From positions 1 through 30,370 of IMG/VR virus record IMGVR_UViG_3300031861_000378: a stretch of DNA of 30,370 nucleotides. The stretch is one strand, 5' to 3'. The notes under the pieces were generated by a model. That model was not told where the DNA came from. It made no database searches and saw nothing but the letters and a program-made list of their open reading frames with translations. The position numbers and the translations under genes were made by a program. This document shows, piece after piece, positions 1,118-1,675 of this stretch (within the stretch, counting starts at the first letter, position 1; each line of letters begins with the position of its first letter). Source of the stretch: a virus. Taxonomy: Duplodnaviria; Caudoviricetes.

Positions 1118-1675
1118 CTACCTGGCTACTCGACGCTTCACGCCGAGGGTCTGACGCAGGGTGCCGACCTCGCCCGTGGCGGTATCCACCACCTTGTTGC
1201 GCTGTCGCACGCGATCAAGGCGGAACGTCCGTGGCTCGCTGCGCAGATGGCAGAAGCCCATAAAGTAAATATCGTCGCTCCAGCCGCTGCCAGAACTGAC
1301 CACCTTATGCACCGTTACCTCTCGGTCAGAGTAGTCGCCATCGGAATTGCGATAGGCAAAGCGGATCTGCTTAGAACCCGTCCAGATCGTCTCGCCCTGC
1401 ACATGCTCGTCGTTGAAGTCACCGCGCGCAGGGGTGGCCGGCGCCTGCTGGCGAGAACGCACGAAATCAGTTTTAAAAGGCTCCGGTGAGCCGCTGCTCT
1501 TGTTGGCGCGGTAGACCTTCATCCCCTCAGAAAACCAACCGACAATAGCGATCACATAGACCACGGCGACGACAATCCAAGCCCAGCCGGCCCAGTCGAA
1601 GAACCACAGGAAAGGGACAGCAAGAATTGCGAGGCCCACCATAGGGCCTTTGAAATCGGGGTAATCCATGCTCAC
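1118..1675 (-). CDS. Membrane-anchored WYL-domain protein
   Basis: N-terminal hydrophobic segments ([33 protein letters not shown]), polar linker, then WYL signature [18 protein letters not shown]...[20 protein letters not shown]. Start reassigned to GTG 1675 (AAGGAG 6 nt upstream); ATG 1669 is the alternative. Confidence 0.85.

Follow-up and report, generated by a model that had tools for sequence, protein, structure and literature searches.

A stand-alone WYL protein with a predicted membrane anchor between repressor and integrase in a P2-like temperate phage

The locus and its WYL protein

The window analysed here (the whole stretch of 30,370 nt, positions 1 to 30,370 of the virus record IMGVR_UViG_3300031861_000378) represents a P2-like temperate phage, as it encodes P2-family capsid, scaffold, terminase and portal proteins together with Ogr and a Toprim primase. 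The closest named relatives of its WYL protein come from Stutzerimonas and Pseudomonas, and the host of the phage therefore likely belongs to this group. At the left end of the window, four genes follow each other on the minus strand: repressor C1 (82 aa, phrog_147; 1932..2180), repressor C2 (79 aa, phrog_147, 49% identical to C1; 1696..1935), a gene of 185 aa for a predicted transmembrane (TM) hairpin, a linker and a WYL domain (1118..1675), and a tyrosine integrase (370 aa; 1..1113). A Cox-like excisionase/repressor (phrog_575, E 5e-17; 2269..2496, plus strand) is divergent from C1, and two 21-nt direct repeats between C1 and cox (2199..2240, 86% alike) likely form the operator of this switch. 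The C1 stop codon overlaps the C2 start codon in an ATGA (1935-1932), 20 nt including an AGGAG separate C2 from the WYL gene, and 4 nt separate the WYL gene from the start of int (1113). The tight packing of the WYL gene described in a previous, sequence-only reading of this region is thus borne out, and because of it C1, C2, the WYL gene and int are probably transcribed together. A promoter scan returned no sigma-70-like promoter (0.9 expected by chance), and 4 terminator-like sites were found compared with 2.3 +/- 1.8 by chance. Seventeen sequencing runs were checked for RNA carrying the gene, with none listed; contigs of run X5, which we guess to be RNA, span little of the WYL gene.

Two regions elsewhere in the window are worth recording. 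Positions 8401-9000, ahead of the ogr region, show the lowest GC content of the window (0.48) and contain no long ORF. Between ogr and portal, a pair of genes (9607-10052, minus strand) encodes a DUF4177-like protein (below the cut-off) and a YidD-like protein (E 9e-20); such a pair also lies between repressor and TM-WYL-BRCT gene in two distant loci (L063, L080). A link between this pair and WYL was rejected, as YidD occurs in 0 of 11 WYL-positive and 3 of 39 WYL-negative clade records.

The WYL ORF (1675-1118, minus strand) begins with GTG and ends with TAG. The start codon is backed by the AGGAG 6 nt upstream and by homologues that start at the same alignment column; an alternative 210-aa frame from position 1750 runs into C2. 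The only Pfam match of the protein is WYL (PF13280; residues 101-158, E 1.2e-11, 44.9 bits with a cut-off of 21.8). Among Pfam families, neither a helix-turn-helix (HTH) domain nor a WCX domain was matched, and just 27 residues follow the WYL match. Kyte-Doolittle maxima over 19 residues are 1.7 (residues 8-30, a weak segment) and 2.2 (residues 23-54). AlphaFold2, run with 34 sequences, places helices at residues 9-25 and 30-60 (block pLDDT 81-93 over residues 11-50) and a beta barrel at residues 95-172, with pLDDT below 50 through much of residues 62-90 in between; the model as a whole has a mean pLDDT of 73 and a pTM of 0.44. Residues 9-60 (1496..1651, minus strand) are thus predicted from hydropathy and the model to form a two-helix inner-membrane hairpin, termed here the type A anchor, the topology being predicted from hydropathy alone. 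A low-confidence linker (residues 62-90; 1406..1492) joins it to the barrel (1160..1393), which carries Y108, R118, Y137, R145, R149, F151, R152 and R155. Pfam, hydropathy and AlphaFold2 therefore agree on the layout given in the sequence-only reading, namely two hydrophobic segments, a linker and a WYL domain without HTH.

The predicted barrel is of the expected WYL/Sm-like fold, and the top Foldseek rows are the WYL proteins PafBC, BrxR, CapW and DriD, with E-values of 1e-3 or weaker. Superposition in VIA gave Z 7.2 for BrxR (rmsd 2.6 A, 64 residues) and 6.8 for CapW (2.7 A, 62 residues), which are modest values given that helices of FUT8 reach 6.4. Together with the score above the PF13280 cut-off, this shows that the window protein belongs to the WYL superfamily; it is a member neither of the wHTH-WYL-WCX regulators nor of SNIPE, with no Pfam match to DUF4041 or GIY-YIG and no SNIPE-type match in PADLOC. 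For the WYL proteins PADLOC returned generic WYL models only, and NCBIfam gave no significant match. A four-copy complex prediction scored 0.00 and carries no weight for or against an assembly; the top score in the ESM Atlas was 0.81, which we treat as a lead only. Compared with the homologue in L159, dN/dS is 0.27/0.84 for the membrane part and 0.18/0.69 for the WYL part; for the WYL part compared with L126 it is 0.058/0.75. Both parts of the protein are therefore under purifying selection.

The repressor-integrase slot among related phages

The sequence-only reading had proposed a survey of the slot between C and int in related phages. Ours started from 112 rows (80 found via integrase, 28 via cox, three genome loci and the window); four without a detectable repressor or integrase were dropped, and the remaining 108 represent 68 non-redundant phages (clustered by type at 95% integrase identity). 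Of these, 51 have an empty slot and 17 a WYL gene in it; nine of the 17, including the window, encode TM-WYL proteins with anchor A, three carry a different anchor (B), two have a degenerate pocket and three encode BRCT-WYL proteins. Leaving out the window and two loci found only via WYL, the gene is present in 14 of 65 clade phages. The only cargo other than WYL genes or extra repressors is a single gene with two TM segments beside WYL in L098/L159, so that the slot is narrower in content than a typical defence hotspot. In L159 this gene (3987-4520) lies between TM-WYL and int and encodes 177 aa with two hydrophobic segments; it had no match in Pfam or PADLOC. Among 43 empty-slot records, 41 of which are at least 90% complete, 42 had no WYL match anywhere and one a marginal match (E 8e-4), while positive controls were detected in four of four cases. 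A quick integrase tree with 67 rows requires 10 changes of the WYL label, at least 6 of them forced by strong branches, and the label is clustered above the level of shuffles. The WYL gene of the slot is thus an accessory gene.

In addition to the gene as a whole, its parts are exchanged. The homologue in L126 is 91% identical to the window protein in its WYL part and only 31% over the first 60 residues. One contig of run X2 keeps positions 906-1438 of the window, including the WYL half of the gene, replaces the anchor by about 257-260 different nucleotides and rejoins the window at 1696, the exchange lying within or just before the linker; another contig of the same run skips 986-1695. Different anchors have thus been swapped onto a retained WYL domain, and the protein is modular. 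Exchange also reaches the domain itself. In L166, L170, L175 and L179 (3915-4496), a TM-WYL variant without Pfam match has lost the pocket arginines and a Cys-His while the ends of the barrel are kept; with a dN of 0.005 and a dS of 0.18 between L170 and L179, it appears to be under selection. Soluble BRCT-WYL proteins with an altered motif occupy the same slot in L130 (3905-4504), L151 (3917-4504) and L161 (3890-4504). A gene can thus occupy the slot without the pocket or without the anchor, and these two kinds of variant are the main facts left unexplained by our analysis. TM-WYL genes apparently split into two frames were seen in L003 (5693-6270), where the gene lies outside an intact switch region, and in L004 (2436-2950).

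Of the 68 clade phages, 13 have two or three C-type repressors in tandem that differ in their recognition helices, for example at 1696-2180 of the window and in L099, L145, L157, L171, L178, L180, L181 and L195; such additional copies might broaden immunity to superinfection. Repressors of the clade are as a rule short HTH proteins and do not represent truncated regulators.

The sequence-only reading had suggested that the WYL protein relays a signal in trans to the two adjacent HTH-only repressors, in other words that it binds C1 or C2 and controls them as the detached half of a split switch. The tight packing of the operon is compatible with this, as is the observation that, where first repressors are at least 85% identical, the type of slot mostly travels with the repressor (for example L001, L002, L004 and L115), yet such covariation would result from adjacency alone. 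WYL genes are found in 2 of 14 multi-repressor phages (in one of which, L125, a frameshift divides what is a single repressor) compared with 15 of 54 single-repressor phages (Fisher p 0.49), so that 15 of the 17 WYL phages have only one repressor. Moreover, near-identical repressors occur without WYL: L099 and L181, neither of which carries a WYL gene, have a first repressor 95% identical to C1 and a second repressor 91% identical to C2, respectively. Conversely, between L169 and L166 the repressors do not differ and the integrases are 99% identical, yet the WYL parts are only 48% alike. Across the wider family, WYL genes follow P2 C-type, 186-type, S24-type and short XRE repressors; these are unrelated, which makes a repressor an unlikely partner. 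A split switch with C1 and C2 was therefore rejected on the co-occurrence and identity data, and we consider repressor control by the WYL protein highly improbable.

Relatives and ligand pocket of the WYL domain

With WYL-only patterns, 52 more distant viral loci were recovered and analysed (L042-L094 without L088, which is a close relative), corresponding to 33 non-redundant ones; a second viral scan mostly returned the same contigs. An N-terminal hydrophobic segment is present in 30 of the 33 proteins, and only 17 of the 33 have at least three K/R after the last segment detected. Across the family, the anchors differ in size and are unrelated in sequence. A repressor or HTH gene lies just upstream on the same strand in 35 of 45 loci (55 upstream ORFs scanned); ten of these repressors are of the S24 type, nine were taken as 186-like and the rest are mostly short XRE proteins. 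In L064, the gene upstream of TM-WYL (the upstream gene at 5088-5798) gave a Sie-like phrog_8545 match (E 1e-30) together with a Pfam tRNA_anti-like match. Annotated phage records gave seven weak matches; Yersinia phage vB_YenM_201.16 shows the order cI, WYL gene, int, and in a Stenotrophomonas podophage a 69-aa match lies within the lytic early region.

A profile of 20 sequences matched 895 clusters (50% identity) at E 1e-10, not all of which need share the TM-WYL architecture, and 5111 at 1e-3. A hydrophobic segment is present in 127 of 142 new top representatives, a figure biased by the anchors contained in the profile itself. The 62 longer representatives among the 142 (a 2767-aa repeat match left out) contain no HTH, WCX or nuclease domain at E 1e-3; a separate search for longer proteins gave 11, eight of them PafC-like regulators according to Pfam and three with WYL only or WYL and BRCT. 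Domains added to WYL relatives are BRCT, TerB and further WYL copies, and no fused effector or catalytic domain was detected in the sets scanned. Fusions of WYL with BRCT and TerB have been listed before, and a membrane fusion is not among the architectures noted from that work (PMC4012209).

The commonest fusion partner, found in 17 of the 62 longer relatives, is BRCT, a DNA-repair domain, which brings up the possibility of an SOS-independent damage sensor. Such a sensor would bind ssDNA of the RecBCD type and tune induction or integration, acting not on the repressor but on another phage or host protein (Int, Cox or a membrane protease, for example). Damage-derived ssDNA is a known WYL signal (PMC9186387, PMC11662680), and apart from the two-TM gene of L098/L159 the non-repressor genes of the slot are exclusively WYL genes. 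Against such a function stands the absence of the gene from 51 of the 68 clade phages, 42 of 43 empty-slot records having no WYL elsewhere. S24-peptidase repressors are RecA-inducible, so that the phages at the ten distant loci behind such repressors would already respond to damage. We thus regard a damage sensor as rather unlikely.

A profile alignment to PDB 8bnv, whose length and residue numbering point to DdPif1, matches R118, R145, R149, R152 and R155 of the window protein with R464, R491, R495, R498 and R501. In DdPif1 these five WYL arginines have been placed on ssDNA, in a complex that is itself a model (PMC9964779). None of the five, nor Y108, Y137, F151 or C142, varies among the 34 homologues, a set collected by a search that favours shared words. 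More generally, the WYL groove is lined by conserved basic residues and a cysteine (PMC4012209), and PafBC function needs a Tyr/His in beta1, the Tyr of the WYL triplet, a loop Phe and two loop arginines (PMC6789036), residue classes which have equivalents in Y108, Y137, F151 and the arginines. Of the ligand residues of DriD (Y168, R176, R178, Y192, K202, R204, R207, Y240 and R288; PMC9186387), Y168, R178, Y192, R204 and R207 seem to be matched by motif in the window protein, and R176, K202, Y240 of the linker and R288 of the WCX seem to have no counterpart. The WCX builds part of the ssDNA crevice in CapW (PMC11662680) and contributes to it in DriD (PMC9186387), and its absence might thus lower ssDNA affinity. 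With the arginines kept and the WCX-side residues missing, the WYL domain of the window protein likely binds ssDNA, perhaps weakly.

Alternatively, the barrel might have been reused for a protein or small ligand, and exclusion might come about by contact with an entry protein such as the tape measure or a host channel rather than with DNA. A WYL regulator sensing c-di-GMP has been reported (PMC11880434), the pocket-less variant appears to be selected beside an identical repressor, and in type A homologues the Trp-rich turn of the hairpin (kept in 25-26 of 26) is more conserved than the helix cores. On the other hand, the basic pocket is invariant in 34 of 34 close homologues, and its R-x-F-R-x-D-R motif recurs in 109 of 142 distant representatives, though the profile favours this motif. 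A non-DNA ligand therefore seems to us improbable, slightly more so than damage sensing.

A proposed role at the membrane and comparison with known systems

The constant features of the family are its place behind a repressor, the WYL barrel and, mostly, some kind of membrane anchor, and a lysogeny-expressed binder held where DNA enters the cell fits them best. We propose that the lysogen produces the WYL protein from a transcript shared by repressor and integrase, and that its linker and inner-membrane hairpin would hold the WYL domain on the cytoplasmic side near the site of DNA entry. There it may catch ssDNA or DNA ends during entry, so that the genomes of superinfecting phages, or other DNA on its way in, would be stalled or spoiled. 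By exchange of its anchor the binder might be directed to one entry site or another, in the manner of an adapter; a comparable role has been proposed for the variable N-termini of SNIPE. The protein has no enzyme domain and would therefore act by holding the DNA or by passing it to host nucleases. Anatomy, pocket conservation, gene position and the accessory, swappable distribution are observations, whereas co-transcription, cytoplasmic placement, ssDNA as ligand and exclusion as output are what we infer; we assign a probability of about 0.4 to this reading, and exclusion or defence is in our opinion the most likely role of the gene. As the DNA of tailed phages enters mainly in double-stranded form, ssDNA would be restricted to cohesive or resected ends. 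The missing WCX, the pocket-less and BRCT variants, the lack of an effector domain in the relatives scanned, the narrow content of the slot and the finding of three or more K/R after the last hydrophobic segment in only 17 of 33 distant proteins likewise weigh against this reading.

Membrane helices joined to a ligand-binding domain also invite comparison with ligand-gated effectors such as Cap15, Cam1 and Csx23, whose layout is similar; no signal-making enzyme (cyclase or Cas10) is found beside the WYL gene, its neighbours being repressors and integrase. A single-gene abortive infection system, in which ssDNA arising during infection would cluster the WYL domains and the helices would depolarise the membrane, would be in line with this layout and with the strong conservation of the type A hairpin turn. 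Furthermore, a stand-alone WYL gene precedes Kiwa at 93 P4 hotspot loci (PMC9122126). However, the anchors of the family are unrelated and variable in size, which makes a conserved pore unlikely; BRCT replaces the anchor in the same slot, and no polar face is conserved on the type A helices ahead of E50. P2-like phages make ssDNA during their own lytic cycle, and the phage would thus risk triggering the system itself. Abortive infection is in our view unlikely, about half as probable as capture of incoming DNA though ahead of the other alternatives, and explanations not considered here account for a very small remainder.

In a more speculative and less probable version of the proposed capture, temperate phages across Proteobacteria would use WYL domains on interchangeable inner-membrane anchors as an enzyme-free, one-gene trap, which grabs the single-stranded cohesive end, the first resected strand, or conjugative or transforming ssDNA. 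If this is true, foreign DNA would be told from the phage's own by place alone, and the WYL domain would itself be the effector and not the sensor of a regulator. The gene is small, and its natural variants (anchor A, anchor B, BRCT, pocket-less, absent) occur on near-identical phage backbones, which makes it directly testable.

Several known systems share single features with the window protein. The sequence-only reading pointed to glo of Vibrio phage K139, which presumably occupies the equivalent slot between cI and int. Published descriptions place Glo in the periplasm and give it a part in phage exclusion; the analogy lies in a slot linked to exclusion and is positional only. K139-like phages have a defence hotspot between cI and int (PMC9122126), whereas the same slot in the window clade contains almost only WYL genes. 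ThaL of a pneumococcal prophage likewise combines a membrane helix with a nucleic-acid-binding domain in a lysogeny module, the domain being HIRAN and not WYL according to its description. SNIPE (PD-lambda-1) is membrane-bound and acts during injection; its placement at the membrane can distinguish incoming DNA, and its anchors diversify (10.1101/2025.11.03.685801). A variable N-terminal anchor on a conserved C-terminal part is thus common to both, in our case as judged by hydropathy and model; in contrast to the window protein, SNIPE has DUF4041 and a GIY-YIG nuclease. The C-terminal WYL module of Pif1 from T. elfii and D. desulfuricans also lacks a WCX, shares the five modelled arginines and serves as an accessory ssDNA binder (PMC9964779, and T. 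elfii experiments cited there); the window protein differs in having no helicase, a predicted anchor and a place in a phage lysogeny operon. With the wHTH-WYL-WCX regulators DriD, PafBC, CapW and BrxR it has the WYL fold and the main ligand residues in common, but a predicted membrane hairpin replaces HTH and WCX, and without an HTH it would be unable to bind an operator itself. More than 90% of WYL proteins are reported to carry an HTH (PMC6789036), and the literature searched, which covers few subscription journals, contained no paper on membrane-anchored prophage WYL proteins. New in this study are the clade survey, which argues against a split switch, and the swapping of anchor and pocket. 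A large phage family that has dropped the HTH, added an anchor and settled behind a repressor would represent an undescribed use of the WYL domain in lysogeny.
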